39,388 bases of DNA from an uncultured Phycisphaerales bacterium (GCA_937891445.1 CALAFV010000276.1:1-39388); one strand, 5' to 3'. Positions 317 to 35,272 are shown, counted from the stretch's first letter. Notes: a model not told the origin generated them from the sequence alone. Made by a program: numbers and translations.

Positions 317-417
317 GGCTGGGTTGGCGGGGGAGACGGCCGGGGGCGGGGGTGTGTTCAAGGACGAAAGCAAACGCCCGCTGCCCGCGCGGGCGACAGA
401 CAGACGAGGAGTTGGTC

Positions 418-14241: not shown

Positions 14242-14364
14242 GTATCCGTTCGGTGGGGAAGGCGGGGGGCCGCTCCACGGGTGCGCGGCCGCAAACGCAG
14301 ACACGCACACACAAGCCCGGGTGGCCGGGTGGCACACGTCCGCAGGCTCTAGGGAGGTTCATCC

Positions 14365-19364: not shown

Positions 19365-19451
19365 CCATGGCGCGGGCCCCCCGGCTCGCGCCCCCTACAA
19401 GGCTGATCCTCCCCGCGCACGTCAACGACAGACCCCGCAGGAGTCCCCGAC

Positions 19452-22181
19452 ATGTCCGAGATCTCCCGCACCGCACTCTTCGGCAAACTCACGCCCCTCG
19501 CCTATAAGGCCGTCGAGGGCGCCACCGTCTTCTGCAAACTCCGCGGCAACCCGTACGTCGAACTGGTCCACTGGATCCACCAGATCCTGCAGAACCAGGG
19601 CTCAGACCTTCACGAGATCGCCCGGCACTTCAACCTCGACCCGTCGCGCCTGGCCGCGGACCTCACCGCCGCCCTCGACAAACTCCCGCGCGGCGCCACG
19701 GCGATCAGCGACCTCTCGCCCCACCTGGAGGACTCCGTCGAGCGCGGCTGGGTGTATGGCTCGCTCATGTTCGGCGAGATGCAGGTGCGCACCGGGCACC
19801 TGATCGTCGGCATGCTCAAGACCCCGGGCCTCAAGAACGTGCTCCTGTCGCTCTCGAAGGAGTTCGCGAAGATCAAGCCCGAGGAACTCGCCGAGAACTT
19901 CGCCAAGATCACCGCCGGCTCCCCCGAGGCCGGCATGACCGCCCAGGACGGCTCTACGCCCACCGGCGGCGGCGCTGCCCCCGGCGAGGCCTCCGGCGCG
20001 ATGGCCCCCGCCCAGATGGGCAAGCAGGAGGCGCTGAAACGCTACAGCGTTGATCTGACCGAGCAGGCCCGCTCGGGCAAGATGGACCCGATCATCGGGC
20101 GTGACGACGAGATCCGCCAGATGATCGACATCCTCATGCGCCGCCGCCAGAACAACCCGATCATCACGGGCGAGGCCGGCGTCGGCAAGACTGCGCTGGT
20201 CGAGGGCTTCGCGCAGCGCATCGCCAAGGGCGACGTCCCGCCGAGCCTCAAGGACGTGTCGGTCCGCGCGCTCGACCTCGGTCTGCTCCAGGCCGGCGCG
20301 AGCATGAAGGGTGAGTTCGAGAACCGCCTCCGTCAGGTGATCGACGAGGTTCAGTCCTCTCCCAAGCCCATCATCCTCTTCATCGACGAGATCCACACGC
20401 TGATCGGCGCCGGCGGCACGGCCGGCCAGAACGACGCGGCCAACCTCCTCAAGCCCGCGCTGGCCCGCGGCACGCTCCGAACCATCGGCGCCACGACGCG
20501 GGCCGAGTACAAGAAGTACTTCGAGGAGGACCCCGCCCTCACCCGCCGCTTCCAGGAGGTGAAGGTCGACGAGCCGACGCCCGAGAAGGCGATCGACATG
20601 CTCCGCCGCCTCGCGGCCCCGCTCGAGAAGCACCACCAGGTGCAGATCCTCGACTCGGCGCTCGAGGCCGCGGTCAAACTCTCGCACCGCTATATCCAGG
20701 GCCGCCAACTCCCCGACAAGGCCGTGAGCCTGCTTGACACGGCCTGCGCCCGCGTCGCCGTCAGCCAGTACGCCACGCCGGCCGAGGTCGAGAGTTGCAC
20801 GCGTCTCATCCAGAACCTCGAGACCGAACTGGAGATCGTCGCCCGCGAGGAGGCCGTCGGCTACGACCACGCCAAGCGCCGGGCCAAGCTCGAGGCGGCC
20901 CTCGCCTCGGAGCGTGAGCGCCTCACCGAACTCGACAAGCGGTGGAAGCAGGAGAAGGACCTGGTGGACCGCGTGCTGGCGATCCGCGCCAAACTCCGCG
21001 CCGCCGGCCAGTCGGTCCCGAACCCAGGGTCCAGCGCCACGCCGCCCCCGAACCCGCAGGCGCCGCTCGCCGCGCCCCTCTCCGAGCAGGACCGCCTGGT
21101 CGCGCTGGAGGAACTCCGCAAGGCCACGGACGAACTCGCGCAACTTCAGGGCGAGACGCCGCTGATCCTCCCGGTCGTGGACGAGAACGCCGTCGGCGCC
21201 GTCGTCGCCGACTGGACGGGCATCCCTGTCGGCCGCATGGTCAAGGACGAGATCCAGGCGGTCCTCAAACTGGCCGACACGCTCAATCAGCGCATCATCG
21301 GCCAGCGCCACGCGCTGGACGCCATCGCGCAGCGCATCCGCACCAGCCGCGCGGGCCTGGAGAACCCCAACAAGCCCATCGGCGTCTTCATGCTCGCCGG
21401 CACCAGCGGCGTCGGCAAGACCGAGACCGCCCTGGCGCTGGCCGAGGCGCTCTACGGCGGCGAGTCCAACGTCATCACCATCAACATGAGCGAGTACCAG
21501 GAGGCGCACAAGGTCGCCACGCTCATGGGTTCGCCCCCCGGCTACGTCGGCTACGGCAAGGGCGGCGTCCTCACCGAGGCCGTGCGGCGCAAGCCCTACT
21601 CCATCGTTCTGCTCGACGAGGTCGAGAAGGCCCACCCGGACGTGCACGAGATCTTCTTCCAGGTCTTCGACAAGGGCGTGATGAAGGACTCCGAGGGCCG
21701 CGACATCAACTTCAAGAACACCATCATCCTGCTGACGACCAATGTCGGCACGGACCTCATCCAGAACATGTGCAAGGACCCGGCGCTGATGCCCGACCCG
21801 GAGGCCATCGCCAAGGCCCTGCGCGAGCCGCTGCTGAAGGTCTTCCCCCCGGCGCTCCTCGGTCGCCTGACCGTCATCCCCTACTACCCGCTGACCGACG
21901 AGATGCTCCAGGCGATCACCCGCCTGCAGCTCGACCGCGTCCGCAAGCGCGTCGAGGCCAGCCACGGCGTCCCGTTCGAGTACGACCAGGCCGTCGTGGA
22001 CCTGATCGTCTCCCGATGCACCGAGCGAGAGTCCGGCGGCCGCATGGTGGACGCCATCCTCACCCAGACGCTGCTCCCGACGGTCAGCGGCGAGTTGCTC
22101 AACCGCCTCATGTCCGGCCGGCCCCTCGCCAAGGTCCGTGTGGGCGTCAAGGACGGCGACTTCGAGTACTCCTTCGACTGA
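19452..22181 (+). CDS. tssH: T6SS AAA+ ATPase ClpV (TssH)
   Basis: Clp N-domain, then two AAA+ modules with Walker A GEAGVGKTA (NBD1) and GTSGVGKTE (NBD2), and a coiled-coil middle domain. 909 aa. Confidence 0.97.
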   Translation: MSEISRTALFGKLTPLAYKAVEGATVFCKLRGNPYVELVHWIHQILQNQGSDLHEIARHFNLDPSRLAADLTAALDKLPRGATAISDLSPHLEDSVERGWVYGSLMFGEMQVRTGHLIVGMLKTPGLKNVLLSLSKEFAKIKPEELAENFAKITAGSPEAGMTAQDGSTPTGGGAAPGEASGAMAPAQMGKQEALKRYSVDLTEQARSGKMDPIIGRDDEIRQMIDILMRRRQNNPIITGEAGVGKTALVEGFAQRIAKGDVPPSLKDVSVRALDLGLLQAGASMKGEFENRLRQVIDEVQSSPKPIILFIDEIHTLIGAGGTAGQNDAANLLKPALARGTLRTIGATTRAEYKKYFEEDPALTRRFQEVKVDEPTPEKAIDMLRRLAAPLEKHHQVQILDSALEAAVKLSHRYIQGRQLPDKAVSLLDTACARVAVSQYATPAEVESCTRLIQNLETELEIVAREEAVGYDHAKRRAKLEAALASERERLTELDKRWKQEKDLVDRVLAIRAKLRAAGQSVPNPGSSATPPPNPQAPLAAPLSEQDRLVALEELRKATDELAQLQGETPLILPVVDENAVGAVVADWTGIPVGRMVKDEIQAVLKLADTLNQRIIGQRHALDAIAQRIRTSRAGLENPNKPIGVFMLAGTSGVGKTETALALAEALYGGESNVITINMSEYQEAHKVATLMGSPPGYVGYGKGGVLTEAVRRKPYSIVLLDEVEKAHPDVHEIFFQVFDKGVMKDSEGRDINFKNTIILLTTNVGTDLIQNMCKDPALMPDPEAIAKALREPLLKVFPPALLGRLTVIPYYPLTDEMLQAITRLQLDRVRKRVEASHGVPFEYDQAVVDLIVSRCTERESGGRMVDAILTQTLLPTVSGELLNRLMSGRPLAKVRVGVKDGDFEYSFD

Positions 22182-22259
22182 ACTCCGTTGCCTGCACGGG
22201 CGGCCGGCGCTGGATGACATGGTAAACTGGGCTTCATGGCCCGCTGCTAGGAGCCCCCT

Positions 22260-24545
22260 ATGGCGCGTACCCAGACTGGACGACTCCTGGCCCTCGGCAC
22301 CCCGCTGGGCGAGGACGTCCTTCTTCTCCGCCGCTTCACGGGCGTCGAACAGCTCGGCTCCATGTTCTCCTACGACTTGGACATGGTCAGCGAGCAGGCG
22401 GACATCGTCTTCGAAAAGATCGTCGGTCAGAACGTCACCATCCGCCTGGAACTGCTCGACGGCTCCACGCGCTACTTCAACGGCTACGTCTCCCGCTTCG
22501 TCCAGACCGGCGCCGGCGACCGGCTGGTGAGCTACCGCGCCACCGTCGTCCCCTGGCTCTGGTTCCTGACGCGCGTCTCCGACTGCCGGATCTTCCAGGA
22601 GATGACCGTCCCGGACATCATCAAGGAGGTCTTCCGCTCCCGCGGCTTCAGCGACTTCGACGACTCCGGCCTCTCCGGCACCTACCGCACGTGGGAATAC
22701 TGCGTGCAGTACCGGGAGTCGGACTTCAACTTCGTCAGCCGCCTCATGGAGCACGAGGGGATCTACTACTACTTCAAGCACGAGAACGGCAAGCACACCC
22801 TTATGCTGGCCGACTCATCCAGCGCTCACACGCAACTCCCCGGTTACTCGGAACTTCCCTTCCGTCCGCCGAGCAAGGCCCGTTTCGAGTACGAGACGAT
22901 CGAGTCCTGGATCATCGAGAAGCAGGTCCAGTCCGGCGTCGCCGCGCTCACCGATTTCGACTTCATCAACCCCAAGAAGTCCCTTGAGGCCAAGGCCGCG
23001 ATCTCACGCACCCACGCCGTGCCCGACCTGGAGGTCTTCGAGTTCCCCGGCGGCTACACCAAGCCCGGCGAGGGCGATCACTACGCCCGCGTCCGGATCG
23101 AGGAACTCCAGGCCCAGTACGAGGTCGCTACCGCAAAGACCGATGCTCGCGGAATCACGCCCGGGTACCTCTTCAAGATGGTGGACTACCCCCGGGCCGA
23201 TCAGAACCGCGAGTACCTTATCACCGGCGCGACGTACGAGATCGTCTCCGATCACTTCGAGTCAGCCGACAACGGCCGGGTCGCCGGTGAGCCCGAGCGT
23301 CAGTACCACTGCACGTTTACCGCCATCGAGGCACATCAGCCCTTCCGGCCCCCGCGCACCACGCCCAAGCCCCTGATCCAGGGCCCGCAAACCGCCATCG
23401 TCGTCGGCAAGAGCGGCGAGGAGATCTGGACCGACGAGCACGGCCGTGTGAAGGTCCAGTTCCACTGGGACCGCTACAGCCACGCCGACGAGAAGAGTTC
23501 CTGCTGGATCCGCGTCGCCCAGTCCTGGGCCGGCAAGAAGTGGGGGGCCATGTTCCTCCCGCGAATCGGCCAGGAGGTCATCGTCGAGTTCCTCGAGGGC
23601 GACCCCGACCGCCCGATCATCACCGGCCGCGTCTACAACGGCGACAACAAGACGCCCTACGACCTGCCCGCCAACGCCACCCGCTCGGGCATCAAGACCC
23701 TCTCCTCCAAGGGCGGCGGCGGCTTCAACGAGATCCGCTTCGAGGACAAGAAGGGCGAGGAGGAGATCTTCATCCATGCCGAGAAGGACCTCCAGACCCG
23801 CGTCAAGAACGACCGCGTCGCGCACATCGGTCGCGATCAGCACCTCATTGTCGAGCAGGACCTGATCGAGAAGATCGGCAGGGATCACCACCTCACTGTT
23901 GTGGGTGACCATGTCGACAAGACCGAAGGAGACCGGAGCACCTCCATCGTCGGCGACCACATGGCCAAGGTGGACGGTTCCGATCATCTCACGGTCGGCG
24001 GCGATCGCATGGTCGAGATCCGCGGCGACGACAACCTGAAAGTCACCGGAAAACTCAACTTCAAGTCCAACGACAAAGTCTCGATCGACTCCGCCGCCGA
24101 CATTCACCAGAAGTCCGGCGCGAAGATCGCCGTTGATGCCGCCGGCGCCATCCACATCAAGTCCGGCGCGGCGATCGTCATCGAGGGCGCCAGCCAGATC
24201 TCCCTCAAGGTCGGCGGCAACTTCATCGACATCGGTCCTTCCGGCGTCAGCATCAGCGGCACCGCTGTGAACATCAACACCGGCGGCTCCGCTGGCTCCG
24301 GCGGCGGCTGCAGCGTCACCGCTCCCGCCACTCCGGACGCCCCGGACGATCCCAAGGCCCCCGTGGAGGCCATCACCGAAGCCGCCGGCCAGGTAGAAGA
24401 GCCTCCCCCTCCGCCGCCCGCGGTCGAGCCGTGGCAGTTCAGCCCCGCCGCGCAGGTCCTCAAGGACGCCGCGCAGGACGGCACCCCGTTCTGTGAAGAA
24501 TGCGAGAAGGCCCGCAAGGAGCAGGCCGCGGGAGGTGCTTCGTGA
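22260..24545 (+). CDS. vgrG: T6SS spike protein VgrG with a roughly 80-aa C-terminal tail
   Basis: gp27-like N-terminus (LGEDVLLLRRFTGVEQLGSMFSYDLDMVS). gp5 OB-fold hallmark RVAQSWAGKKWGAMFLPRIGQEVIVEFLEGDPDRPIITGRVYNG. Beta-helix repeats (VGDH.DK..GD...). RBS AGGAG lies upstream. Confidence 0.97.
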   Translation: MARTQTGRLLALGTPLGEDVLLLRRFTGVEQLGSMFSYDLDMVSEQADIVFEKIVGQNVTIRLELLDGSTRYFNGYVSRFVQTGAGDRLVSYRATVVPWLWFLTRVSDCRIFQEMTVPDIIKEVFRSRGFSDFDDSGLSGTYRTWEYCVQYRESDFNFVSRLMEHEGIYYYFKHENGKHTLMLADSSSAHTQLPGYSELPFRPPSKARFEYETIESWIIEKQVQSGVAALTDFDFINPKKSLEAKAAISRTHAVPDLEVFEFPGGYTKPGEGDHYARVRIEELQAQYEVATAKTDARGITPGYLFKMVDYPRADQNREYLITGATYEIVSDHFESADNGRVAGEPERQYHCTFTAIEAHQPFRPPRTTPKPLIQGPQTAIVVGKSGEEIWTDEHGRVKVQFHWDRYSHADEKSSCWIRVAQSWAGKKWGAMFLPRIGQEVIVEFLEGDPDRPIITGRVYNGDNKTPYDLPANATRSGIKTLSSKGGGGFNEIRFEDKKGEEEIFIHAEKDLQTRVKNDRVAHIGRDQHLIVEQDLIEKIGRDHHLTVVGDHVDKTEGDRSTSIVGDHMAKVDGSDHLTVGGDRMVEIRGDDNLKVTGKLNFKSNDKVSIDSAADIHQKSGAKIAVDAAGAIHIKSGAAIVIEGASQISLKVGGNFIDIGPSGVSISGTAVNINTGGSAGSGGGCSVTAPATPDAPDDPKAPVEAITEAAGQVEEPPPPPPAVEPWQFSPAAQVLKDAAQDGTPFCEECEKARKEQAAGGAS

Positions 24546-25123
24546 GCCGCGCCGAGTTTGTCATGGAGCGTCCCGCACCCGGCGTCGCCGCCGACCTTGC
24601 CCGCCTGCTCTTCCGCGAAGAGCCGACGATCACCTATGTCGTCCTCGACGGCGCTTCCGTCCCTGGCCTCCGCCAGCGCCTCCACAAGGACGCTCCGGAG
24701 TCCTGCTGTCTCTACCGCGGCGAACTCGCCCCCGACCTCGCCGAGGTCGCCCCGTATCTCGTCCGCCTTCAGATCGGTCACCCGTTCACGAAATGGGTCC
24801 TCTCCGAGGGGTGGGCCGAGCACTGGGGCATCTTCGTCCAGACCAGCGCCGATCTCCGCTCCCTCCGCCGCCACTTTCGGAACTTTCTGATGGTCAAGAA
24901 CCCGGAGGGCAAGCGGCTCTACTTCCGCTTCTACGACCCGCGCGTGCTGCGGCTGTTCCTCCCCACCTGCGACGCTCAGCAACTCAAGGTCCTCTTCGGC
25001 CCCATCGACGCCTACCTCTGCGAGGCCGACGACCCCGGCCAAGTTCTTCACTGGCGCCTCGACGGGGGGACGCTCAAGAAGCAGTCCCTCCCCCTTGCTC
25101 CCGCGGGGCGCGCCCGCACCTGA
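24542..25123 (+). CDS. DUF4123-family T6SS effector adaptor/chaperone (Tap/Tec-like)
   Basis: TYVVLDGASVPGL..., APYLVRL, EHWGIFVQTSADLRSLRRHFRNFLMV..EGKRLYFRFYDPRVLRLFLPTC all match the DUF4123 pattern. GTG 24542 overlaps the vgrG stop (GTGA). The alternative start is ATG 24563. Confidence 0.8.
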   Translation: MSRAEFVMERPAPGVAADLARLLFREEPTITYVVLDGASVPGLRQRLHKDAPESCCLYRGELAPDLAEVAPYLVRLQIGHPFTKWVLSEGWAEHWGIFVQTSADLRSLRRHFRNFLMVKNPEGKRLYFRFYDPRVLRLFLPTCDAQQLKVLFGPIDAYLCEADDPGQVLHWRLDGGTLKKQSLPLAPAGRART

Positions 25124-25137
25124 CCGGACTATCCCCA

Positions 25138-25497
25138 ATGCTGACGATCAGACCCGAGCAGATCGAAGCCCTGAACGCCGCGATGCGCGAGCGCTACATC
25201 GCCAGGGTCGTCGCGCACCTCCGCGAACTCTTCCCCGAGCAGATGAAGGAGCGCGACGACGCCCAGGCCCGCGCCCTCGTCGAGGAGGGGATCGGCCGCG
25301 CCGCGGCGTACAACATCACCTCCGAGCGCGAGACGACGCTCTTCATCGACCTCATGGCCGCCCTCGGCCCCGACTTCGACACGCAGCGCCGCTACCGCGC
25401 GTGGATGCCCGGGATCCTTCGCAGCGAGGACCTCACCCAGCAGCAGAAGATGGAACTCGTGTACCAGCGGCTCGAATCCCTCGAGCAGCCCGCGTAA
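25138..25497 (+). CDS. Hypothetical 119-aa helical-looking protein, a possible co-chaperone
   Basis: ATG 25138 lies 15 nt after the DUF4123 stop. G/C dominates the third codon position, the composition is protein-like (MLTIRPEQIEALNAAMRERYIARVVAHLRELFPEQ...), and there is no signal peptide. I recognise no family. Confidence 0.55.
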   Translation: MLTIRPEQIEALNAAMRERYIARVVAHLRELFPEQMKERDDAQARALVEEGIGRAAAYNITSERETTLFIDLMAALGPDFDTQRRYRAWMPGILRSEDLTQQQKMELVYQRLESLEQPA

Positions 25498-25539
25498 CGC
25501 ACCCGCTCCCCTCACCTCGTCCTTCTCCGGCGGTACACC

Positions 25540-28500
25540 ATGGGATTCTTCCAAGACGCGCTCAACAGGGTGAAGAAGGCCTTCGGCTCCAAGGGCACCG
25601 GCGAGTCCACGCAGCCATGCCCGCTGAAGGAGACCGGTCTGCTCGTCGTGGTCGTCCGCGACGACAACCACGCCGCCGTCACCGGCGCGGGCGTGGACAT
25701 CAAGGGCAAGACCCCGTTCAAGAAGCAGTCCGACAACCAGGGCATCGCTCTCTTCAAGCCCGTCGAGCCCGATACCTACAGCGTCACCGCAACGCTCCCC
25801 TCCTCGATCAAGGACGACTTCTCCCCCCCCGACGCGACGCAGGCCACCGTCCCCCTCGGCGAGTGCCCGATCCACATCGTGCACGTCCAGCCTCTCGCCG
25901 CCCTGAAGGTCCGCGTTGTCTACCGCGACCCCAACTCCTCCGACCCCTCCGCGGAAACATACCTCGACGGCGTGACCGTCCACGTGGAGGGCGACCCCAA
26001 CTCGGGCAAGTCCCTCGCCGACCAGCGCACCGGCGCCGGCGCCACCGGCTGGGCCACGTACCAGCGCCTCAAGGCCGGGCAGTACAAGATCAGCGTCGCC
26101 TCCCTCGGCTCTCACGCCTCGAAGTACCTCCCTCCCGCCGAGGCCACTGTTGACCTTCTGCCGGGCAAGACGCAGGAGGTCACCCTCGTCGCCGTCCGCA
26201 GCACGCTCTCGGTCAAGGTCGTCGAGGACGCCGCCAATGGCAAGCCGATCAAGGGCATCAAGATCAAGGCCCGTGAGACGGGGAAGAACGCGGCGCTCGC
26301 CGACAAGACCAGTTCCGACTCCGCGCCCAGCGTCTACGAGCCCCTCGGCCCCGGCAACTACGAGGTCTCTCTCGTCCTGACCGACGAGGACAAGAAGAAG
26401 TACAAACTCTCGGGCGATCCCGTCCGCACCGTCGCACTCGGTGCGGCGGACCAGAAGGAAGTCGTCTTCATTCTGTGCCCGATGGTCCGGGTCCACCTCA
26501 AACTCCAGTTCAAGGACCCCGAGGACGCCAAGCGGCCGCTTCCGGAGAAGTTCCCCGTCCGCCTCGTCTCCGAGGTGGGCGACCCGATCGAGGCCTTCGT
26601 CGGCAAGGACGGCCTGCTCTACGACAAGGCCGGCGAGGGGGCCAAGCCCGGCATCGACGTGGAGCGCCGCCGCAAGACGTTGACCCTCGAGTTCCCCACT
26701 GACAAGCCCGCCTTCATCGTCTGCGAGAAGCGCGGCGAAGAGACCAAGACCCAGGAATACATCCCCGAGACCGATCCCTACAAGAGCGGCACGCCGCTCG
26801 CGGCCCGCATCGCCCGGGGCGCCCGCGCCCTGCGCACGCCCAAGGGCAAGTGGACGCTCAAGAACTCCGACTGGGAAGTTCTCGCCGGCGGCTCCGCGCC
26901 CCCGTGCTACAACAAGAACAAGGCGGCCTTCATCGACCTCGACAAGCCCGACACGACGATCGGCGACGAGTCCAAGCCGGTCGAACTCACCCTCGACCCC
27001 CACTGGCAGTTCCTGAAGTTCGAGTACTTCGACCGCTTCTACGGCCACAGCGTCTGCAAGGACAAGCCCATCTCGGTCCTGCCCCTCTTCATCGAGGGCT
27101 ACGCCAAGCCCCAGGACGACAAGGAAGTCCCCGTCGCCGACGACCTCACCACGCAGTGCAACTGGACGATCGGCCCCAACGACAAGGAACTCGTCCAGTG
27201 CGTCCCCTGGATCATCCGGCGGGACGACAAGGACGCCGAACTCAAGCACCCCACCAAGGACTGCACGCTCCGCTTTATCACCGACGAGGACCACCGCTTC
27301 ATCAAGTCCAACAAGATGTCGCGCGAGTTCTGCCGGCTCGACGACACGCACCCCGACAAGCACCACCTCCCCTGCGCCGATCGTCTCCGCTACTACGACC
27401 TCCCGGCCGAGTGGCGCTCCACACACTACTACTGCCGCCTCTCGGACAAGCCCGAGGACCAGGACTTCTATGAGATCCTCGTCGAGAAGGAGACCAAGAA
27501 GGACAAGCCCCTGATCTTCTCGCTCGACGACATGGTCCTCACCGACGAGACCCTCAAGCCCGTCGACTGGAGGTACGCCAACCCCGAGCCCGCCGGCACT
27601 CCCAACGACCGCGTCGCCATCTTCTCCCACAAGTTCTCCGGCCCCGCGTGGACCGACGGCCAGAGTTCGCCCACGCTCCTCAGCGCCGCCCCGCGCGCCG
27701 GCGGCGTGCCTCCCAAGCCCCAGCCCCGCACCGACCGCAGCAAGCCCGGCCTCTCGCCCGACGGCCTCTACCTCCACGAGGGCAAGGGCGACCGTCACGA
27801 CTACAGCGCCGTCTGCGTCCCCAGCAACTACATCGCCGACTACCCGGACTGGACGCGCCTCATCATCGCTCAGGGCAACGTCCACGATGTCTTCGACAAG
27901 CGCACCACCTACAAGACCAACGCCGGCAAGAGCAAGGTCGTCGGCGCACGCGCCGCCGTCCGCTGGGTCGAGTCCGCGAAGCCGGCGCACGCCGCGCTCA
28001 ACACCGTCAACCCCCGCCCGAGCCTGGTGAAGCACCCCTCCTCCGCAAGCGAGCCCTTCTTCGCCACCCAGCCGCTCTTCGAGCAGCGGTACCAGTGGTG
28101 GTACGAGCGGCTCGGCTCCGGCAACACCCTCGGCATCGGCCGCTTCGACCCCATCCTGCTCCGCTGCTGCGACGTCGAGTCCCAGGACGACAAGTCCGGC
28201 CAGACCGAACTCGCAGCCAGCATGATGTTCATGCGCGTCTCGTTTGACTTCCAGGCCGAGCCCGACGCCGGCAAGACGCGCGCGCAGTACATGGACCTGC
28301 ACAACAAGAACGTGTGCGACCGCTGGAACGGGCGCGAGCCCGGTCTGAGCAAGCCCACCACGTTCGTCCCGGTCGACGCCGCCAAGAAACTCAAGGTCCG
28401 CGCCTTCTACTTCGCCCAGAGCCACCCCCGCAGCCGCGCGCACCTCGAGTACAAGATCCTCGCCAACAACGATCCCAACGCCCGTCAGTGGTGCGGCAGT

Positions 28501-29559
28501 TCCAACGGCACCGGGATGCTCAAGAACGACGACTACCAGGCGACCGGCGCCCACATCGCCCCCGACTCCTTCACCGCCGCCCACGAGTTCGGCCACTTCG
28601 GCTCACAACCCGACGACTACGGCGAACGCTGGACCTGGTGCTCCGGCTGGCAACTCGACTTCATCAACTACGTCCCCGGCCTCCCCTACGACGACGACCA
28701 GCGTGCGATGATGCGCAAGAACCACACCGTCCGCGCCCGCAACCTCTGGTTCGCCGCCGAGTGGTGCCGCGTCGCCTCCGACGTGCCCTTCAAGGTCAAG
28801 TTCGGCAACGACGACCTGTACCACATCCCCAGGCACCCGCAGGCCCCCGCCCGCAACTACACCTCCTGGCCCGTCAAGCACCTCTACGACCAGACCGTCG
28901 GCGGCCGGTCCAAGTTCGATCTCTACCTCTACCTCCTCGGCGAGGACGCGACGTCCAAGAACGTCTACAACGTCGGCGGCACCGCGGACGGCGTGCTTGT
29001 CGTTGCGGTCAAACTCGAGTGGAACTTCAACATCGTGCCGGCTTCCTGGGCCATCCACGCCGTTTCGCTCATCGACCAGCACATCCGTTCCAAGTGCAAC
29101 GGCAAGTTCTACGCGACCGGGAAGGTCACCGTTGACGGCGAGGAGAAGACGCTCAACCGCTGCCTCATCATCTTCCAGCCCCGCTACCTCCTCACCCAGT
29201 GCACCGAGGATCCTCCCAGCCCGGCCACCCCGGCGGCGATGGCCAAGTACAACAACGCCGTCGCGCAATACAACACCAAGGTCGCCCAGGTCCGAGCCAT
29301 GAACGGCGGGCCGCACTTCAACATTACCGTCGACTTCGCCTCTCCCCCGCCCGCCCCCGCCTGGGGCGGCCCCGCTCCCGACCGCAACCTCGCCTACGCC
29401 ATCGACGGCAACAACACCGAGGCCAGGCTCCGCGGCGTCTTCTACCGTCACTTCCGCGAGATGATCGGCCTGCCCAACGGCAACACCGAGCCCGACGCCA
29501 ACGGACTCAAGCCCATCGCCGCGCTCATCCTCACCAACAGCGACGTCAGGAAGGCCTGA
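25540..29559 (+). CDS. Large (1339 aa) putative T6SS cargo effector: N-terminal prealbumin/CarboxypepD_reg-like beta-sandwich repeats plus a C-terminal HEXXH (HEFGH) zinc-peptidase-like region
   Basis: There are three or more modules of the type LLVVVVRDDNHAAVTGAGVDIKG...PDTYSVTATLP, LKVRVVYRD...KAGQYKISVASL and LSVKVVEDAANGKPIKGIKIKA...GPGNYEVSLVL. HEFGH is encoded at 28582-28596, in the context SFTAAHEFGHFGSQPDDYGERW. I count 22 Cys. There is no signal peptide. The gene lies immediately downstream of vgrG and DUF4123. Confidence 0.8.
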   Translation: MGFFQDALNRVKKAFGSKGTGESTQPCPLKETGLLVVVVRDDNHAAVTGAGVDIKGKTPFKKQSDNQGIALFKPVEPDTYSVTATLPSSIKDDFSPPDATQATVPLGECPIHIVHVQPLAALKVRVVYRDPNSSDPSAETYLDGVTVHVEGDPNSGKSLADQRTGAGATGWATYQRLKAGQYKISVASLGSHASKYLPPAEATVDLLPGKTQEVTLVAVRSTLSVKVVEDAANGKPIKGIKIKARETGKNAALADKTSSDSAPSVYEPLGPGNYEVSLVLTDEDKKKYKLSGDPVRTVALGAADQKEVVFILCPMVRVHLKLQFKDPEDAKRPLPEKFPVRLVSEVGDPIEAFVGKDGLLYDKAGEGAKPGIDVERRRKTLTLEFPTDKPAFIVCEKRGEETKTQEYIPETDPYKSGTPLAARIARGARALRTPKGKWTLKNSDWEVLAGGSAPPCYNKNKAAFIDLDKPDTTIGDESKPVELTLDPHWQFLKFEYFDRFYGHSVCKDKPISVLPLFIEGYAKPQDDKEVPVADDLTTQCNWTIGPNDKELVQCVPWIIRRDDKDAELKHPTKDCTLRFITDEDHRFIKSNKMSREFCRLDDTHPDKHHLPCADRLRYYDLPAEWRSTHYYCRLSDKPEDQDFYEILVEKETKKDKPLIFSLDDMVLTDETLKPVDWRYANPEPAGTPNDRVAIFSHKFSGPAWTDGQSSPTLLSAAPRAGGVPPKPQPRTDRSKPGLSPDGLYLHEGKGDRHDYSAVCVPSNYIADYPDWTRLIIAQGNVHDVFDKRTTYKTNAGKSKVVGARAAVRWVESAKPAHAALNTVNPRPSLVKHPSSASEPFFATQPLFEQRYQWWYERLGSGNTLGIGRFDPILLRCCDVESQDDKSGQTELAASMMFMRVSFDFQAEPDAGKTRAQYMDLHNKNVCDRWNGREPGLSKPTTFVPVDAAKKLKVRAFYFAQSHPRSRAHLEYKILANNDPNARQWCGSSNGTGMLKNDDYQATGAHIAPDSFTAAHEFGHFGSQPDDYGERWTWCSGWQLDFINYVPGLPYDDDQRAMMRKNHTVRARNLWFAAEWCRVASDVPFKVKFGNDDLYHIPRHPQAPARNYTSWPVKHLYDQTVGGRSKFDLYLYLLGEDATSKNVYNVGGTADGVLVVAVKLEWNFNIVPASWAIHAVSLIDQHIRSKCNGKFYATGKVTVDGEEKTLNRCLIIFQPRYLLTQCTEDPPSPATPAAMAKYNNAVAQYNTKVAQVRAMNGGPHFNITVDFASPPPAPAWGGPAPDRNLAYAIDGNNTEARLRGVFYRHFREMIGLPNGNTEPDANGLKPIAALILTNSDVRKA

Positions 29560-29566
29560 GCCACGT

Positions 29567-30964
29567 ATGACGCGTCCACGCACCGCCCAGCACGCCCGCG
29601 CGTCCAGGCCGTTCGCGGCCCGCCCCCTGTGGACCGCCGCCGCGACGCTGGCCGCCGCCGTGGCGTGCCTCGGCTGCCAACTCAACTCTCACAAGGACCC
29701 GAGCATGCCTCCCACGCCCTTCACCGAGTTCGGCCTCGACCCCAAGCCCGTCGCCGCGCCCGAGCCGCGCCGCATCGTCCCGCTCACCCAGCCCGCGCGA
29801 GCCGCTTCGGCGCGCCCGTCTCCCTCCGATCCCGACGGCGCTCTGCAGCCGTTCGCGAACGCTCAGCGGAACTCGCGGCTCCCGGCCTCGCTCCCAGCGG
29901 CCGAGTCGTGGGACCGCGCCGTCACCGTTCCCATCGCCGAGGACTTCATCCCGCACGGCCTCGTCGCCTCCGACCGCGTCGTTGTGCTCTCGACTCCCAT
30001 GGGGCTGCTCGCCTTCGGCCCCGACGGCAAGCAGATCGGCGGCCGCATCGACGCGCTGACCGACGGCGTTATCGCCCCGACCCAGTCTCACGTCCTCTGC
30101 GCCGACTCGAACGGGTTCATCGCCGGCCACCCCCTCGCCGCCGGCGCGCCCCGTTTCCAACTCAGCCCCTCCTTCGGCAACGTCTACCGCCGCGACTTCT
30201 TCGCATTCCTCGGCGGCCGCCTCGTCGTGGTCGGCCAGAAGTCGATTCCCCCCGTCGAACGCCGCGAGACGGAGCCCCCGAAGCCCGAGGCCATCATCGA
30301 CGCCTGGGACTGGCCCGAAACGATCAAGACCGACGAGGACGGCTACGCCGACAACGCGCCCAAGGTCCGCTCCATCATTACCCCCACGCCGACGCTGGCC
30401 GCCGCGGCCGTCGGCGAGGCTCTGGTTGTTGCCGTCCCCGATCACATCTACACGATCGACCGCGAACTGAACGTTCAGAGCGATCTCACCGGCGAGTTCT
30501 ACCCCCTCGCCCTCTGTTGCGACTCCCACGGCCGCATCTACCTCATCGCCCGCGGCACGCCCGCCGGCCGCCTCCTCGTCATCACACCCGACGCCCGCCA
30601 ACTCTTCGCGACCGATCTGCCCCCGCCGCCCCGCGGCGGCTACGCCCCGCCCATTGTCGGCTACGACCACACCATCTACATCCCCACCGAAGACCGCATC
30701 GTCGTCCTCGACTCCTCCGGCAAGGCCCAGCCGCCGATCCCGATTCAGGGCCGCTTCGCCGGCGCCGCCGTCACCGCCGACCATCACCTCCTGGTCGCCA
30801 GCGGCGACCGCCTCGTCGCCCACACCGTCGGCGCCGAGCCCACCGTGATCGCGGAGTTCCCCGGCGAGGCAGTCCGAACCGCCCCCGTCTTGCTGCGGTC
30901 CGGCGTCATCTGGATCGCGACCGACCGCAACCTCTACGCCCTCAAGCCCGTCCCGCGGCAGTAA
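29567..30964 (+). CDS. Exported (probable lipo)protein with PQQ/BamB-like beta-propeller repeats; candidate immunity protein
   Basis: N-terminus RPLWTAAATLAAAVACLGCQ looks like a signal peptide with lipobox-like Cys residues. Blade-like motifs recur: HIYTIDRELNV, RIYLIARG..GRLLVITPDARQLF, TIYIPTEDRIVVLDSSGK, HLLVASGDRLVAH, VIWIATDRNLYALKP. The start is 8 nt after the effector stop. Confidence 0.7.
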   Translation: MTRPRTAQHARASRPFAARPLWTAAATLAAAVACLGCQLNSHKDPSMPPTPFTEFGLDPKPVAAPEPRRIVPLTQPARAASARPSPSDPDGALQPFANAQRNSRLPASLPAAESWDRAVTVPIAEDFIPHGLVASDRVVVLSTPMGLLAFGPDGKQIGGRIDALTDGVIAPTQSHVLCADSNGFIAGHPLAAGAPRFQLSPSFGNVYRRDFFAFLGGRLVVVGQKSIPPVERRETEPPKPEAIIDAWDWPETIKTDEDGYADNAPKVRSIITPTPTLAAAAVGEALVVAVPDHIYTIDRELNVQSDLTGEFYPLALCCDSHGRIYLIARGTPAGRLLVITPDARQLFATDLPPPPRGGYAPPIVGYDHTIYIPTEDRIVVLDSSGKAQPPIPIQGRFAGAAVTADHHLLVASGDRLVAHTVGAEPTVIAEFPGEAVRTAPVLLRSGVIWIATDRNLYALKPVPRQ

Positions 30965-31000
30965 GCAGCGTCGCACGCACCACCATCAGAGGAGCCCGTC

Positions 31001-31387
31001 ATGGCGAATCAGGTCGTTTCCACCGCCCAGCTCCAGTGCACCTTCGGCGCCGCTCCTGCCGTTCTCAACGTCCTCCCGAATACCGTCACCATCGAGGGCA
31101 GGCCCGCCGCCACCATCGCCGACATGGTCCCCATGACCAACATCCCCTCCTTCGGGATGTGCAGCGCCCCCTCCAACCCCGCCGTGATCTCCGCGACCTC
31201 CGCGGCCTCCGGCGTCTTCACACCGGCCCCCTGCGTCCCCGCCACCGCGGCCCCGTGGGCCCCGGGCGCACCGACCGTCCTCATCGGCGGCAAGCCGGCG
31301 CTCAACAGCAACAGCAAGTGCAACTGCGCCTGGGGCGGCATCATCTCCATCACCGTCCCCGGCGCCACCAAGACCCAGGTCCCCTGA
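31001..31387 (+). CDS. DUF4280 PAAR-like T6SS spike-tip protein
   Basis: AQLQCTFGAAPAVLNVLPNTVTIEGRPAATIADMVPMTNIPSFGMC...PCVP...W..G.PTVLIGGKPALNSNSKCNCAWGGIISI matches the DUF4280 pattern as I remember it. 128 aa. RBS AGAGGAG lies upstream. Confidence 0.82.
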   Translation: MANQVVSTAQLQCTFGAAPAVLNVLPNTVTIEGRPAATIADMVPMTNIPSFGMCSAPSNPAVISATSAASGVFTPAPCVPATAAPWAPGAPTVLIGGKPALNSNSKCNCAWGGIISITVPGATKTQVP

Positions 31388-31397
31388 CTTCTCACCC

Positions 31398-32447
31398 ATG
31401 TTCACATCCCAGCCGCGCCGCACCGCGCTCGCGACCCTCGCCCTCCTGACCACGCTCGCCGTCGCCGCCGGCTGGGGCGCTCACGGCCACCGCACCATCA
31501 CCCTTCTGGCCCTCGACGGCCTCCCCGAATCCGCGCCCGCCTTCCTGCGGGACGCCGAGGTCCGCCGCCGCATCGCCGAGCAGGCCGTCGAGCCCGACCG
31601 CTGGCGTGGCACGCGTCTGGCCGCGATGACCCACGAGAACGATCCCGAGCATTACCTCGACGTCGAACTGCTCGAGCAGTTCGGCCTCACGCTCGAAACC
31701 GTGCCCCCGCTCCGCTACGACTACCTGCGGGCCATGGCCATCGCCAAGCACGTCCACCCGGAGAAGGTGGACCCCTACGACCGCCGCACCGACCCCGCCG
31801 GTTCGAAGGAGTGGCCCGGCTTCCTCCCCCACGCTATCGCCGAGCACTACGCCAAACTCCGCTCCAGTTTCCACACGCTCCGCATCCTCGAGGCCGTCAA
31901 CGACCCCGCCCGCGCGGCCCAACTCGAGAACGCCCGCGCCAACGTCGTCTACCACATGGGCATGCTCAGCCACTTCGTCGCCGACGCCGCCCAGCCCCTG
32001 CATACAACAAAGCACTTCAACGGCTGGGTCGGCGACAACCCAAGCGGCTACACCACCGACCGCCGCTTCCACGCCTTGGTGGACACCGACCTCGTCATCC
32101 ACCACGGCCTCTCCTACGACTCGTTGCGCGGCCGCGAGCGCACCCGGCGCCGCATCAACGCCGCGGACCCGTGGGACGACTGCATCGCCCACATCCGCCG
32201 CTCCTTCGACCAGGTTGAGCCCCTCTACCGCCTCGAGCGCGACGGCGCGCTCCGCGGCCCCGAAGGCAAGGCTCTCCTCGAGGCCCGCTTCCTCGATGCC
32301 GCCGACACCGTCGCCGCCCTTTACGCGGCCGCCTGGCGCCACAGCGAGCCCACCGAAGGCGAGATCGTCTCCTTCGCCAACTACAACCCCACCGAGCCCG
32401 CCCCCGGCTCGTCTCCGGCCCGCCGCCGCGGGTCCGAAAACCCCTAG
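31398..32447 (+). CDS. Exported S1/P1-family zinc nuclease
   Basis: Signal peptide MFTSQPRRTALATLALLTTLAVAAG|WGAHGH gives a mature N-terminal Trp, as in P1 nuclease (WGALGH). All the ligand motifs I remember are present with the right spacing: W1, H6, EPDRW, EHYLD, HFVADAAQPLH (H-x3-D-x5-H) and FHALVD (H-x3-D). Confidence 0.85.
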   Translation: MFTSQPRRTALATLALLTTLAVAAGWGAHGHRTITLLALDGLPESAPAFLRDAEVRRRIAEQAVEPDRWRGTRLAAMTHENDPEHYLDVELLEQFGLTLETVPPLRYDYLRAMAIAKHVHPEKVDPYDRRTDPAGSKEWPGFLPHAIAEHYAKLRSSFHTLRILEAVNDPARAAQLENARANVVYHMGMLSHFVADAAQPLHTTKHFNGWVGDNPSGYTTDRRFHALVDTDLVIHHGLSYDSLRGRERTRRRINAADPWDDCIAHIRRSFDQVEPLYRLERDGALRGPEGKALLEARFLDAADTVAALYAAAWRHSEPTEGEIVSFANYNPTEPAPGSSPARRRGSENP

Positions 32448-32467
32448 ACCGCACGTGGGCGCTGTTG

Positions 32468-35272
32468 ATGACCTGTGAATCGCCGACGGGGCGTCCCGCG
32501 CCGGCCGACTACCATGGTGCAGGAGCGCCGCCGCCGGTCTCCCCCATGACCCCCGCCCACCGCATCGCCGACGACCTCCGCCCCGACACCCCGGCCCACG
32601 AGGCCGCGGCGGCCGTCCTCCGCGCCTTCCTCCGGCCCCTTCCCCGCGCCGTCGAGCGTGCGTCCGCCGAGGGCAGGAAGAACTCCGCCGAGGACGTCCA
32701 CCACCTCCGCGTCGCCACCCGCCGCGCCGAGGCCGCCCTGCACGTCTTCGACGGCATCGTCCCCGCCAAGCCCGCGACGAAAATGCGCCGGCGGCTCAAG
32801 CGCCTCCGTCGCGCCGCCGGCCGCGCCCGGGATTGCGATACTGCCGCCGTCACGCTCGCGGCCCTTGGAACCAACCTGACGCCGGCCGAGGCCGCCGCCG
32901 CGGAGGCAGCGTTCGCCCAGTTCCGTGCGGACGGCCGGCGCGCCCGACGCGACCTGGCCCGTGCCGCGAAACGCGACACGCCGCGGAAACTCCGCCGCGG
33001 CCGCCGCAAACTTCTCCGCCGCATCGACGATGGCGAACCTGGCCGCCGTCCTCTTTCCGAGGTCCTCGACGCCGCCGCGGCCGGTGCGCTCGACGCGGTT
33101 CGCTCCGCCGCGGCCGCCAACCTCTCCGACCTCGGCGCCCTCCACACCCTCCGCCTGCGCATCAAGCGTCTGCGGTACACGATGGAGTTGATCGACGCTT
33201 GCACCGCTGCGCCCGGCGCGGCCGGCGCCGTGGCGTCACCGGCCGCCGCCGCCGTGGAGTGTCTCACCACCATCCAGGACCAACTCGGCGCTCTCAACGA
33301 CGCCGCCCATCTTGCCGGCCGTCTTGCCGACATGGCCCGCTCGGCCTCGGACCCCACCCTCGCCGCCGGGCTTGCGGCCCTCGCGGCCAGGGCACATGCC
33401 CGCGTGGCCGACCTGCACGCCGCGTTCCTCCGCGACTGGTCCCGCGAACACATCGACTCGGTTCTGGGCGATCCAGTTGTGGCATCCCCGGGGGCCTTGT
33501 CGGCGGATCACGCCGCGCCGGCCCAGCCGGGCACGCCCAACGGGGCCCATCGCCCCGCCACGCGCCACATCGCCCCGGAGGTCCCTCCGCGCGACCCGCG
33601 CCGCATCGCCGCCATCGACGTCGGCACCAACTCCATCCGCCTCATCGTCGCCGAGATGGATGAGCTCGAGCCCGGCTCTCCCGACGCCGGCCCCGGCGGC
33701 TACCGCATCCTCGACGATGAGAAGGAGGTCGCCCGTCTCGGCCGCGGCCTGGAGGCCACGGGCCGCATGGACCCTGCGGCGATGGAGCGTGCCGCCGCCG
33801 TCGTCGCCCAGATGCGCGGGATCGCCGACGGCTACGGCGTCGATCGCCTGCGCGTCGTTGGCACCGCCGTCGTCCGCGACGCCGAGAACGGCGAGGAGTT
33901 CCGCCGCCTCGTGCGAGAGCGCGCCGGCGTGGACCTCGAAGTCATCTCCGCCGAGGAGGAGGCCCGTCTGGCCTTCCTCTCCGCTTCGCACGCCTTCGAC
34001 CTGGCCGGCGCGCCCACGGCCGTCGTGGACATCGGCGGCGGCTCAACCGAAGTCATCCTGGCCGCCTCCGGCGTCCTCGACCGCATCTACACCGTCCCCC
34101 TCGGCGCCGTCCGTCTCACCGAGCGCTTCGGCGGCGCCGAGTCCGCCGCCCGCGACCGGTTCGACGACATGACCCGCGCCGTGCGCCGCGAGTTCAAGGA
34201 GCACATCGGCAAGCCCCCCTTCGTCCCCGCGGTCCTCGTCGGCACCGGCGGCACGTTCGCCGCCCTGGGCAGCATCGCCCTGCACGCCGAACTTGGCCCC
34301 GCGGTGGACGGCCTCTTCTCCGGCTCCGTGCAGGGCTACGAGGTGCGCCGCTGGGAGGTCCGCCACCTCCTCGACTACCTGCGCAAACTCCCCCCGCGCG
34401 AGCGAGAGCACGTCGGCGGCCTCAGCCCCGACCGCGCGGACATCATCGTCGCCGGCCTGACCATCATCGAGGGGCTGATGCGCCACCTGCGCGTCAACAC
34501 CGCGCGGGTCCATGAGGGCGGCATCCGCGACGGCCTGCTGCTCCAGATGATCGGCTTCGGCCCCGCCGGCGCCTCCCCCGGCAGCGGATCAGCACGTGAT
34601 CCCCTCCGCTCGATCATGCGTTTCGCCCGCGCCTGCGGCTACGAGCAGCGGCACTGCCGCCACGTCGCCATGCTCGCGACGCAGATCTTCGACCGCCTCG
34701 CCGCCGAGGCCGAGGCCGGGCGCTTCCCGGACGAGGCCGTCGCCGGCATCTTCACGCCCCGCAACCGCCTGCTCCTCGAGGCCGCCGCGATCGTGCACGA
34801 CGTCGGCTACCTCGTGAACTACGCCGGCCACCACAAGCACTCGTACCACCTGATCGCGCATGCCGACCTCCCCGGCTTCACCGCCCGGGAGATCGAGGTG
34901 ATCGCCAACGTCGCCCGCTACCACCGCCGCGCCGAGCCCAGCGAGAGCCACGCCCACTTCGCGCGCCTCCCCCAGAGCGACCGCCGCACGGTGCTGGCCC
35001 TCTCCGCCATCCTCCGCGTCGCCGACGGCCTGGACCGCACGCACATGCAGCGCGTCCGCGCCGTCCGCGTCGCACCGGCCGAGTCCGGCCGCATCCGCCT
35101 CCTCCTCGAGGCAGAACGCGAGCCCTCTGTGGACATCTGGGGCGCGACGCGCAAGGCCGCCCTCTTCGAGCGCTGCTTCGGCCTCACGCCCATCTTTGAG
35201 TGGACGCTCCCTGGCGAGCCGGCCGCCCACGATGTCCGGCCCGCCGACCCGGCGGCGGTCCCGCTCACCTAG
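32468..35272 (+). CDS. ppx: CHAD domain fused to Ppx/GppA exopolyphosphatase with a C-terminal HD domain
   Basis: The N-terminal ~300 aa carry CHAD-type helices (VHHLRVATRRAEAALHVF, LRRAAGRARDCD, LHTLRLRIKRLRYTMEL). Next comes RIAAIDVGTNSIRLIVAEM...VVDIGGGSTEVIL (Ppx/GppA ASKHA fold), then IVHDVGYLVNYAGHHKHSYHLI...ARYHRR (HD). The start is uncertain: TTG 32465, ATG 32468 or ATG 32546. Confidence 0.88.
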   Translation: MTCESPTGRPAPADYHGAGAPPPVSPMTPAHRIADDLRPDTPAHEAAAAVLRAFLRPLPRAVERASAEGRKNSAEDVHHLRVATRRAEAALHVFDGIVPAKPATKMRRRLKRLRRAAGRARDCDTAAVTLAALGTNLTPAEAAAAEAAFAQFRADGRRARRDLARAAKRDTPRKLRRGRRKLLRRIDDGEPGRRPLSEVLDAAAAGALDAVRSAAAANLSDLGALHTLRLRIKRLRYTMELIDACTAAPGAAGAVASPAAAAVECLTTIQDQLGALNDAAHLAGRLADMARSASDPTLAAGLAALAARAHARVADLHAAFLRDWSREHIDSVLGDPVVASPGALSADHAAPAQPGTPNGAHRPATRHIAPEVPPRDPRRIAAIDVGTNSIRLIVAEMDELEPGSPDAGPGGYRILDDEKEVARLGRGLEATGRMDPAAMERAAAVVAQMRGIADGYGVDRLRVVGTAVVRDAENGEEFRRLVRERAGVDLEVISAEEEARLAFLSASHAFDLAGAPTAVVDIGGGSTEVILAASGVLDRIYTVPLGAVRLTERFGGAESAARDRFDDMTRAVRREFKEHIGKPPFVPAVLVGTGGTFAALGSIALHAELGPAVDGLFSGSVQGYEVRRWEVRHLLDYLRKLPPREREHVGGLSPDRADIIVAGLTIIEGLMRHLRVNTARVHEGGIRDGLLLQMIGFGPAGASPGSGSARDPLRSIMRFARACGYEQRHCRHVAMLATQIFDRLAAEAEAGRFPDEAVAGIFTPRNRLLLEAAAIVHDVGYLVNYAGHHKHSYHLIAHADLPGFTAREIEVIANVARYHRRAEPSESHAHFARLPQSDRRTVLALSAILRVADGLDRTHMQRVRAVRVAPAESGRIRLLLEAEREPSVDIWGATRKAALFERCFGLTPIFEWTLPGEPAAHDVRPADPAAVPLT

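Follow-up and report, generated by a model that had tools for sequence, protein, structure and literature searches.

What is the large protein encoded in the middle of a type VI secretion system (T6SS) operon of an uncultured Phycisphaerales bacterium, and what does it do? The stretch of DNA analysed here, referred to throughout as the window (39,388 nucleotides; GCA_937891445.1, CALAFV010000276.1:1-39388), contains an open reading frame (ORF) for a 1339-residue protein, here called X. An earlier note, made from the sequence alone, had described X as a VgrG- and DUF4123-linked cargo protein bearing a single HEXXH motif. The reading favoured here, with moderate confidence, is that X is the toxin of a new and widespread family of T6SS effectors with a metzincin-like active site, that a beta-propeller protein encoded immediately downstream confers immunity to it, and that the toxin probably acts in the periplasm of the target cell.

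The ORF was confirmed as a gene: its GC content at third codon positions (GC3) is 0.94, similar to that of the adjoining genes, and homologues of its product are encoded at loci spanning 34-72% GC. An antisense ORF for 1155 residues (25129..28596, - strand) was dismissed as a high-GC artefact. The one HEFGH sequence noticed earlier lies at residues 1015-1019 (28582-28596). An HExxH motif occurs by chance in 4% of shuffled versions of X, and about 1e-4 occurrences of the extended form HExxHxxxxxDxY are expected in such shuffles. The motif can be regarded as meaningful because it is conserved across the family: in an alignment of 59 diverse members it reads A-H-E-x-G-H-x-x-[S/G/A]-x-x-D-[E/D]-Y, with the H, E, G, H, D and Y the same in all 59. 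Equally invariant is M1058, which lies 33 residues past D1025 and just ahead of the C-terminal helix of the domain.

The metzincins of clan MA(M) share the consensus HExxHxxG/NxxH/D; snapalysins and thuringilysins have an Asp as third ligand, a Tyr found two positions past that ligand forms the so-called tyrosine switch, and the M64 igalysins are metzincins with one added residue, HExxHxxxGxxD (PMC12237041). The sequence HEFGHFGSQPD of X fits this consensus with a small-residue variant at the G/N position, which in the family is occupied by S in 35, G in 18 and A in 5 of the 59 aligned sequences. The suggestion in the earlier note that the site is M64-like rather than metzincin must be abandoned, for M64 enzymes are themselves metzincins, and in X the spacing is the canonical one and the third ligand is an Asp (HEFGHFGSQPD-D-Y), as in M7 and M6. 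An AlphaFold2 model of residues 314-1339, built on the 59-sequence alignment (mean pLDDT 90, pTM 0.88), agrees with this view in that the secondary structure around the motif follows the metzincin order of a backing helix, five strands and an active-site helix. In core numbering, to which 313 is added to obtain that of full-length X, DSSP placed the backing helix at 601-616, the strands at 627-631, 638-648, 656-661, 671-673 and 678-682, the active-site helix at 699-707, the Met region at 744-747 and the C-terminal helix at 753-767.

When a profile of 29 domain sequences was searched against the PDB, the sole significant match was snapalysin (1C7K/4HX3; E=8e-5), in an alignment of 57 residues confined to the motif region; the lesser matches were InhA/M6 (4yu5; 0.13), ADAM8 (0.13), the M64 IgA protease (0.37) and ADAMTS-5 (1.2). 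A profile of five sequences matched snapalysin only (E=0.2), and PDB sequence searches with the single X protein and with the 167-residue motif region gave no match. A Foldseek search of the PDB with the 1026-residue core model returned nothing at E<=1e-3; its matches were led by MMP-3 (E=0.09, probability 0.72, TM score 0.36) and snapalysin (E=0.33, probability 0.57, TM score 0.41-0.42), followed by MMP-13 and archaemetzincin, and those with a probability above 0.5 were metzincins only, at E values that are not significant. In BFVD a poxvirus MMP and ulilysin were among the matches, and the only one at E<=1e-3 was an artefact of immunoglobulin-like (Ig) arrays. When ten catalytic-domain segments were scanned in isolation against Pfam, the only matches were to M6, M7 and reprolysin, all of them below threshold. 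Membership of M7 (PF02031; 12.5 bits, the cut-off being 25) and of M6 (PF05547; 13.5 bits, the cut-off being 22), each match coming from one homologue only, was rejected, as was membership of M64, since the second His and the Asp are separated by five residues in X, where M64 has six, and Pfam Peptidase_M64 gave no match. We conclude that the predicted active site of X is metzincin-like and of the snapalysin type, X itself being a member of none of M6, M7 or M64.

An initial k-mer-limited search yielded 5 relatives only and made X look like an orphan, a view overturned by an exhaustive HMMER profile search of 1.84 billion representatives (clusters at 50% identity), in which the family comprised 577 clusters at E<=1e-3 and 291 at E<=1e-30. 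A profile search of a word-indexed collection found 143 clusters. Scanning the GTDB representative genomes produced 25 loci, all in metagenome-assembled genomes (MAGs), from Acidobacteriota, Pirellulales, Ignavibacteria/Bacteroidota, Myxococcota, Gemmatimonadota and Gammaproteobacteria; the profile search added MAG names from Verrucomicrobiales, Phycisphaerales and Rhodothermales. The family is present in at least seven phyla, including Planctomycetota, Verrucomicrobiota and a few Gammaproteobacteria. Its conserved core corresponds to residues 314-1339 of X. Source annotations call its members only 'hypothetical', 'OmpA-like' or 'peptidoglycan-binding domain-containing', and none has a functional name. 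Full-length X had no Pfam match above cut-off and no NCBIfam match, and literature searches on snapalysin or metzincin combined with T6SS yielded no description of the family. The earlier statement that X could not be assigned to a known effector family therefore stands: Pfam, NCBIfam and PDB searches did not place it, no described effector or peptidase family fits it, and no characterised T6SS metallopeptidase family was matched in these or in the Foldseek searches.

The strongest evidence that X and its downstream neighbour form an effector-immunity pair comes from a related locus, L037. BLASTN aligned the window with L037 at 82% identity over 18133-25927, gave nothing over 25928-30999, and resumed at 85% over 31000-31400 and 78% over 31436-32390, so that the breakpoints fall at about codon 130 of X and at the start of the DUF4280 gene. 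Between them L037 carries an unrelated toxin (P0006), with a HEIGH-containing, Cys-rich C-terminus, and its 339-residue partner. On this alignment, X from codon ~130 onwards and the propeller gene have been replaced together, as a block, inside flanks that are conserved. Exchange as a single cassette argues that the two are effector and immunity protein, and, because similarity to L037 ends at codon ~130, the first ~130 residues of X are best regarded as a constant delivery module. A partner that co-varies with the toxin and is exchanged along with it is what polymorphic effector-immunity systems display, and both features are seen here.

The downstream protein consists of a hydrophobic signal (helix at residues 24-36, with Cys34 and Cys37), a disordered linker of about 65 residues, and an eight-bladed BamB/YxaL-like beta-propeller at residues 103-465. 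Its AlphaFold2 model was built from a multiple sequence alignment of 3 sequences (pTM 0.72) and has a pLDDT of ~80-90 over residues 103-465; Foldseek matched it to YxaL (~1e-11) and BamB (7e-10, TM score 0.65), and the Pfam PQQ_2 cut-off is reached in propeller homologues (29.3 bits in one). Such homologues (E 1e-19 to 1e-190) directly follow an X-type core at 23 of the 25 genome loci, the other two ending at a contig edge, and the propeller adjoins the X-type core in metagenome loci too. It is absent from L006/L007 and L037/38, in which the effector shares only the N-terminus of X and has a different, HEIGH-containing C-terminus, followed by an unrelated gene for 339 residues. The propeller therefore co-varies with the toxin core, and not with the N-terminal module. 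At a locus in a Bryobacterales MAG (L010, 4293-6709) there is an added orphan copy of the propeller, and the small gene described below is present twice upstream of the effector, as in immunity-gene arrays.

A signal peptide or lipobox is present on the propellers of the window, of L001, L005, L008, L010, L023, L026, L028 and L031, and of the Ignavibacteria loci. The earlier description of the next gene product as an exported lipoprotein is borne out for most homologues, with reservations taken up below for the window itself and for the Myxococcota. Action in the target periplasm, also proposed in that note, is plausible on the strength of these export signals and of the OmpA-like and PG_binding_1 domains found in family members. 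The accompanying idea of disulfide- or DsbA-dependent folding fared less well. The count of 22 Cys in X (1.6%) is right, but richness in Cys is a trait of this lineage only, the family median being 0.92%. Conservation is high for C876 (92%) and C877 (85%) and weaker for C554 (66%) and C1208 (58%), while 15 of the 19 core Cys of X are not conserved, so a family-wide disulfide requirement is unsupported and a conserved disulfide network was rejected. The richness of X in Lys, to which the note drew attention, extends to TssB, TssC and Hcp: Lys makes up 6-10% of these proteins (12243-14865) and of X, and 1.5-2% of the immunity candidate and its neighbours (29567-35272), in a genome with a GC3 above 0.9.

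How might X be delivered? The T6SS operon is complete in the window and runs, on the + strand, TssA, TssB, TssC, Hcp, TagJ/ImpE, TssE, TssF, TssG, ClpV, VgrG, DUF4123, a gene for 119 residues, X, the propeller gene, a DUF4280/PAAR-like gene and a gene for 349 residues. The earlier note had the order as vgrG, DUF4123, X; the first two do precede X, but the small gene between DUF4123 and X had been missed. An apparent long ORF at 24493-25497 is a frame artefact that GC3 resolves into two genes, as do independent gene calls on nine contigs with the identical protein. The DUF4123 gene has a GTG start overlapping the vgrG stop, and in the independent calls its product has 193 residues. X is encoded downstream of vgrG and DUF4123 and is fused to no PAAR, VgrG or Hcp domain, as expected of DUF4123-loaded cargo, and its designation as such is upheld by the same synteny in unrelated phyla. 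The order VgrG, DUF4123, small gene, effector, propeller, DUF4280 recurs in a Pirellulales MAG of 46% GC and at other loci; vgrG, DUF4123 and effector follow one another in L001/L009, L005, L026 and L039-L040; and the order VgrG, PAAR, effector, propeller is found in Ignavibacteria and Bacteroidota.

Homologues of the small gene product (27-94% identity) are encoded at the same position, and at 25 metagenome loci the gene usually comes right after VgrG-DUF4123 and ahead of varied effectors, some with an X-type core and many without. Its family usually accompanies short DUF4123 genes (~190 residues), which makes it a candidate co-adaptor. The protein has no Pfam match. DUF4123/Tap adaptors are described as having a VgrG-binding N-lobe of ~177 residues and a variable, helical effector-binding C-lobe (PMC11582642), and the length of the DUF4123 protein in the window fits only the N-lobe. 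Since this adaptor has only 186-193 residues as against the two lobes of Tap, the effector-binding function might be supplied in trans by the helical 119-residue protein; that protein may be the lobe of Tap that binds the effector, encoded here by a gene of its own in a split adaptor. The N-termini of the effectors in L041, L044, L047, L050, L052 and L056, whose genes come after the pair of DUF4123 and small gene, and that of X (25540-25650) have in common a polar/basic leader of ~25 residues, a Cys-Pro and a beta strand (TQPC27PLKETGLLVVVV in X), and this shared leader may be a loading signal.

The remainder of the N-terminal part of X conforms to the earlier description. No hydrophobic signal peptide was found. 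Residues 1-313 scanned alone pass the Pfam cut-offs for CarboxypepD_reg (39.4 bits against 32.3, in 3 stretches) and SdrD_B (33.7 bits against 29.7), so the three prealbumin-like modules can be taken as real. No PAAR, Rhs, lipase or amidase match was obtained; the assertion that X lacks GXSXG needs correcting in that one trivial instance (GSSNG, residue 986) is present. The positions of these and the other features are collected in Table 1.

Table 1. Features of X and of the neighbouring T6SS-associated genes in the window
Feature	Position	Strand	Basis or remark
VgrG spike, 761 aa, presumed carrier	22260..24545	+	Pfam Phage_GPD 6e-107, Gp5_trimer_C, Phage_base_V
Short DUF4123 (Tap-type) adaptor, 186-193 aa	24542..25123	+	Pfam DUF4123 3.8e-35; weak NCBIfam Tla1 match
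Conserved 119-aa gene, candidate co-adaptor, helical by sequence composition	25138..25497	+	GC3 frame analysis
X	25540..29559	+	1339-aa ORF
X aa 1-~130, putative constant delivery module: 26-aa basic leader, C27-P-L motif, first prealbumin-like sandwich	25540..25927	+	
Three prealbumin/transthyretin-like beta-sandwich modules, aa 38-300	25651..26439	+	CarboxypepD_reg, SdrD_B
Conserved, nearly all-beta scaffold, aa 314-907	26479..28260	+	AlphaFold2 pLDDT mostly >90
Predicted metzincin-like catalytic domain, aa 908-1085	28261..28794	+	AlphaFold2/DSSP topology, snapalysin profile match
Putative zinc-binding motif, A-H1015-E1016-F-G-H1019-F-G-S-Q-P-D1025-D-Y1027-G-E	28579..28626	+	Conservation
M1058, candidate Met-turn methionine	28711..28713	+	Invariant, 59/59
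C-terminal alpha/beta domain, aa 1086-1339	28795..29556	+	AlphaFold2 secondary structure
Cognate immunity candidate, 465 aa	29567..30964	+	7 nt downstream of X
DUF4280/PAAR-like protein, right constant flank of the swapped cassette	31001..31387	+	Pfam DUF4280 1.8e-32, PAAR_motif 6.5e-7

A working model of X can be proposed as follows. From synteny and the literature, the N-terminal ~130 residues would be held on the VgrG tip by the short DUF4123 protein and its 119-residue partner, and firing would place X in the periplasm of the target. There a zinc endopeptidase of metzincin type, its site and fold suggested by conservation and by the model, would cleave envelope proteins at or near the peptidoglycan, with H1015, H1019 and D1025 as putative zinc ligands, E1016 as catalytic base, Y1027 as tyrosine switch and M1058 in the Met-turn. 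The beta scaffold of ~600 residues may position or select the substrate. In the producer, the exported BamB-like propeller, linked to X in the ways described, presumably binds and occludes the protease.

Several observations weigh against this interpretation. The modelled structure resembles those of metzincins only weakly (E 0.09-0.3 and TM score 0.36-0.42 in Foldseek), all Pfam peptidase matches fall far under cut-off, and in X itself the residue at the metzincin Gly position is Ser. The relatives all come from metagenomes. Eight Myxococcota propeller homologues, starting MTTLSRIAFMKPT, have no recognisable signal peptide, and the window's own propeller protein has a non-canonical lipobox (AVA|C or LG|C). 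As for the split adaptor, hhalign of the 119-residue protein with one long DUF4123 ORF gave a probability of 0.1, and no fused DUF4123-small ORF was seen among 8 candidates.

The N-terminus is the part in which family members differ: it is prealbumin-like, as in X, OmpA-like or PG_binding_1-type, or in a few cases GYF_2 or fn3. Among 120 members listed, ~30 have an OmpA-like domain in place of the N-terminus of X and ~7 have PG_binding_1, and both OmpA and PG_binding_1 rose above the Pfam cut-offs when family members were rescanned. In Ignavibacteria/Bacteroidota (L002, L011, L012, L014, L027) the effector N-terminus is OmpA-like with PG_binding_1, VgrG and a PAAR-motif protein of ~363 residues stand upstream in place of DUF4123, and the propeller downstream is followed by a ~281-residue protein related to the PAAR-motif protein. 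In Myxococcota MAGs (L013, L015-L018, L022, L025, L032) the effectors have 1470-1500 residues, with a different N-terminus of ~175 residues and residues added relative to the core, and downstream of them the opposite strand carries DUF4123 and a PAAR/VgrG-like gene.

It is in these variants that the best-surviving alternative, itself unlikely, finds its footing, namely that X is a peptidoglycan endopeptidase, cutting peptide stems or cross-links rather than proteins. Many T6SS cell-wall toxins cut in this way, some 30 of the 120 listed members have OmpA-like and/or PG_binding_1 domains N-terminally, the presumed immunity protein would be periplasmic, and the invariant Trp, Asp and Arg residues of the scaffold could make up a glycan-binding surface. 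PG_binding_1, however, also occurs as the MMP pro-domain and so need not mean a peptidoglycan substrate. The peptidoglycan peptidases known to us have LAS, M23, NlpC/P60 or amidase folds, to the exclusion of HExxH metzincin sites, and neither Pfam nor Foldseek revealed any likeness of X to cell-wall hydrolases. Cleavage of envelope proteins remains the preferred activity.

Export of the propeller bears on a second alternative, to which we give little credence: that X is a protease toxin acting in the cytoplasm, neutralised by the propeller inside the producer. The signal-less propellers of the eight Myxococcota loci and the atypical lipobox in the window would accord with it, but clear signal peptides or lipoboxes are present in most other clades, many effectors carry OmpA or peptidoglycan-binding modules, and X has no translocation or transmembrane domain.

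Less probable again is that X is not antibacterial at all, being instead a secreted anti-eukaryotic or matrix-degrading protease, or a structural accessory of the T6SS, and that the propeller assists it. The classical metzincins work outside the cell, adhesins typically contain prealbumin-like and Ig-like arrays, and the propeller's part in immunity is deduced from its genetic linkage. Yet the partner strictly adjoins the toxin gene downstream and co-varies with the toxin core, the two are exchanged as a single cassette, an orphan copy of the partner exists, and the bacteria that carry the family live freely in soil and water.

A last alternative, and the least credible, is that HEFGH is a relic and the actual activity resides in the conserved beta scaffold, for although the scaffold (residues 454-908) is conserved equally to or slightly above the protease domain, one would not expect an inactive site to keep six motif residues and the Met invariant in 59/59 sequences from at least seven phyla. 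The mean top-residue frequency is 0.45-0.47 over residues 454-908 against 0.46 in the protease domain, and there are 25 columns at >=90% in residues 454-673 against 20 in the protease domain. W489, R499, W542, Y619, D620, W625, D663, D664, W771, R773, R788, G802, R804, R875 and E890 of the scaffold are invariant in the 59 sequences. Within the scaffold are a loop region rich in Pro and a long beta-hairpin bearing the conserved C876-C877, and residues 314-907 gave no Pfam match at E<=10 (with the cores of five relatives) and no Foldseek match at E<=1e-3. The C-terminal domain (residues 1086-1339) is the least conserved part of the core (region conservation 0.36), with low-probability Rossmann-like and GTPase-like Foldseek matches only, so that ~800 modelled core residues outside the protease domain are without a structural neighbour.

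Drawn together, these threads allow a bolder and, taken whole, improbable proposal: a new metzincin T6SS weapon found across at least seven phyla would attack a BamB-type propeller lipoprotein, or another component of the outer membrane-peptidoglycan region, with the scaffold as its substrate-recognition device and a DUF4123 adaptor split over two genes, and the BamB-like 'immunity' protein would be a decoy derived from the substrate.

Three further features of the window lie outside the X locus proper. The DUF4280/PAAR-like gene is followed after 10 nt by the gene for 349 residues (the pair at 31001-32447, + strand), whose product has a weak S1/P1 nuclease match (34.5 bits); this pair, conserved also in L037, possibly forms an additional effector module linked to PAAR. 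Directly upstream of the T6SS cluster (352-11028, + strand) is an ORF for 3558 residues with a two-partner-secretion (TPS) domain and DUF5649 repeats and only 0.6% Lys, which on account of these domains is taken to encode a TPS exoprotein (TpsA/CdiA-like). Right after the T6SS-associated genes (32465-35272, + strand) there follows a 935-residue fusion of CHAD, Ppx/GppA and HD, probably an unrelated housekeeping protein.

Catalogues of T6SS effectors have been drawn almost entirely from cultured Proteobacteria, and the X family, with its 577 unannotated clusters confined to uncultured lineages, lies outside them. If the reading proposed here is true, a metzincin-type protease is added to the T6SS toxins, among which the Tpe metallopeptidase effectors are gluzincins. 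The locus also supplies a propeller-type candidate immunity protein and ~800 confidently modelled residues with no known neighbour, and the comparison with L037 provides a clean natural case in which an effector-immunity cassette has been exchanged while the loading module in front of it stayed constant. This module, a Cys-Pro leader and prealbumin-like sandwich associated with a short DUF4123 protein and a small helical protein, could mark further effectors.

Among known systems, the closest functional analogues of X are the Tpe-Tpi pairs (Pseudomonas aeruginosa VgrG2b C-ter/PA0261; Acinetobacter baylyi Tpe1/Tpi1), whose toxins are T6SS-delivered HExxH metallopeptidases acting in the periplasm and countered by exported immunity proteins (PMC6899460). 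Tpe-Tpi toxins are VgrG-fused or small, VgrG2b C-ter being a small, VgrG-fused, thermolysin-like gluzincin of subclan MA(E) with Glu as third ligand, whereas X is metzincin-like, with an Asp ligand and the Met, and is a stand-alone cargo linked to DUF4123. Membership of X in the Tpe-Tpi group was rejected, no VgrG2b chain having appeared among the 50 Foldseek matches listed or, at E<=10, in any of three sequence searches of the PDB. The propeller, the candidate immunity protein here, matched no named family, no direct comparison with PA0261 having been made. It resembles the PQQ-like propellers BamB and YxaL (Foldseek E=1e-11 to 7e-10, TM score 0.6-0.65), and has in common with BamB a lipoprotein-type N-terminus followed by the propeller, but shares only ~14-15% identity with either, is tied to a toxin and not to BAM genes, and has a long disordered linker.

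In its gene order of VgrG, adaptor, effector and immunity, the X locus is like those of the DUF4123/Tap cargo effectors (Tle1-Tla1, TseL-Tap-1, RhsP2-Tap14). In Tap systems the conserved N-lobe of the adaptor binds the VgrG C-terminus (PMC11582642). Here, by contrast, the adaptor has only 186-193 residues, a separate gene for 113-131 residues is always next, and the effector recognition module would be a prealbumin-like sandwich with a Cys-Pro leader.

As to the protease itself, snapalysin (M7; ScNP, 1C7K/4HX3) has the motif spacing of X, HExxHxx[G]xxD-x-Y, with the Tyr two residues past the Asp, followed by a Met and a C-terminal helix; in snapalysin we take the arrangement to be H83/H87/D93/Y95. 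It is, however, a secreted, single-domain Streptomyces protease of 132 residues, while the domain in X is embedded in a conserved multidomain core of 1000 residues; the distance from Asp to Met is 33 residues in X and ~10 in snapalysin, and Ser, Gly or Ala takes the place of Gly in the X family. M64 proteins differ in the additional residue ahead of the Gly (HExxHxxxGxxD), which is absent from X. Even so, both thuringilysin/immune inhibitor A (M6) and igalysin/IgA protease (M64) have, like X, an Asp as third ligand followed by D/E-Y, and they resemble X also in being large, in having several domains and in their flanking beta domains (PMC12237041).

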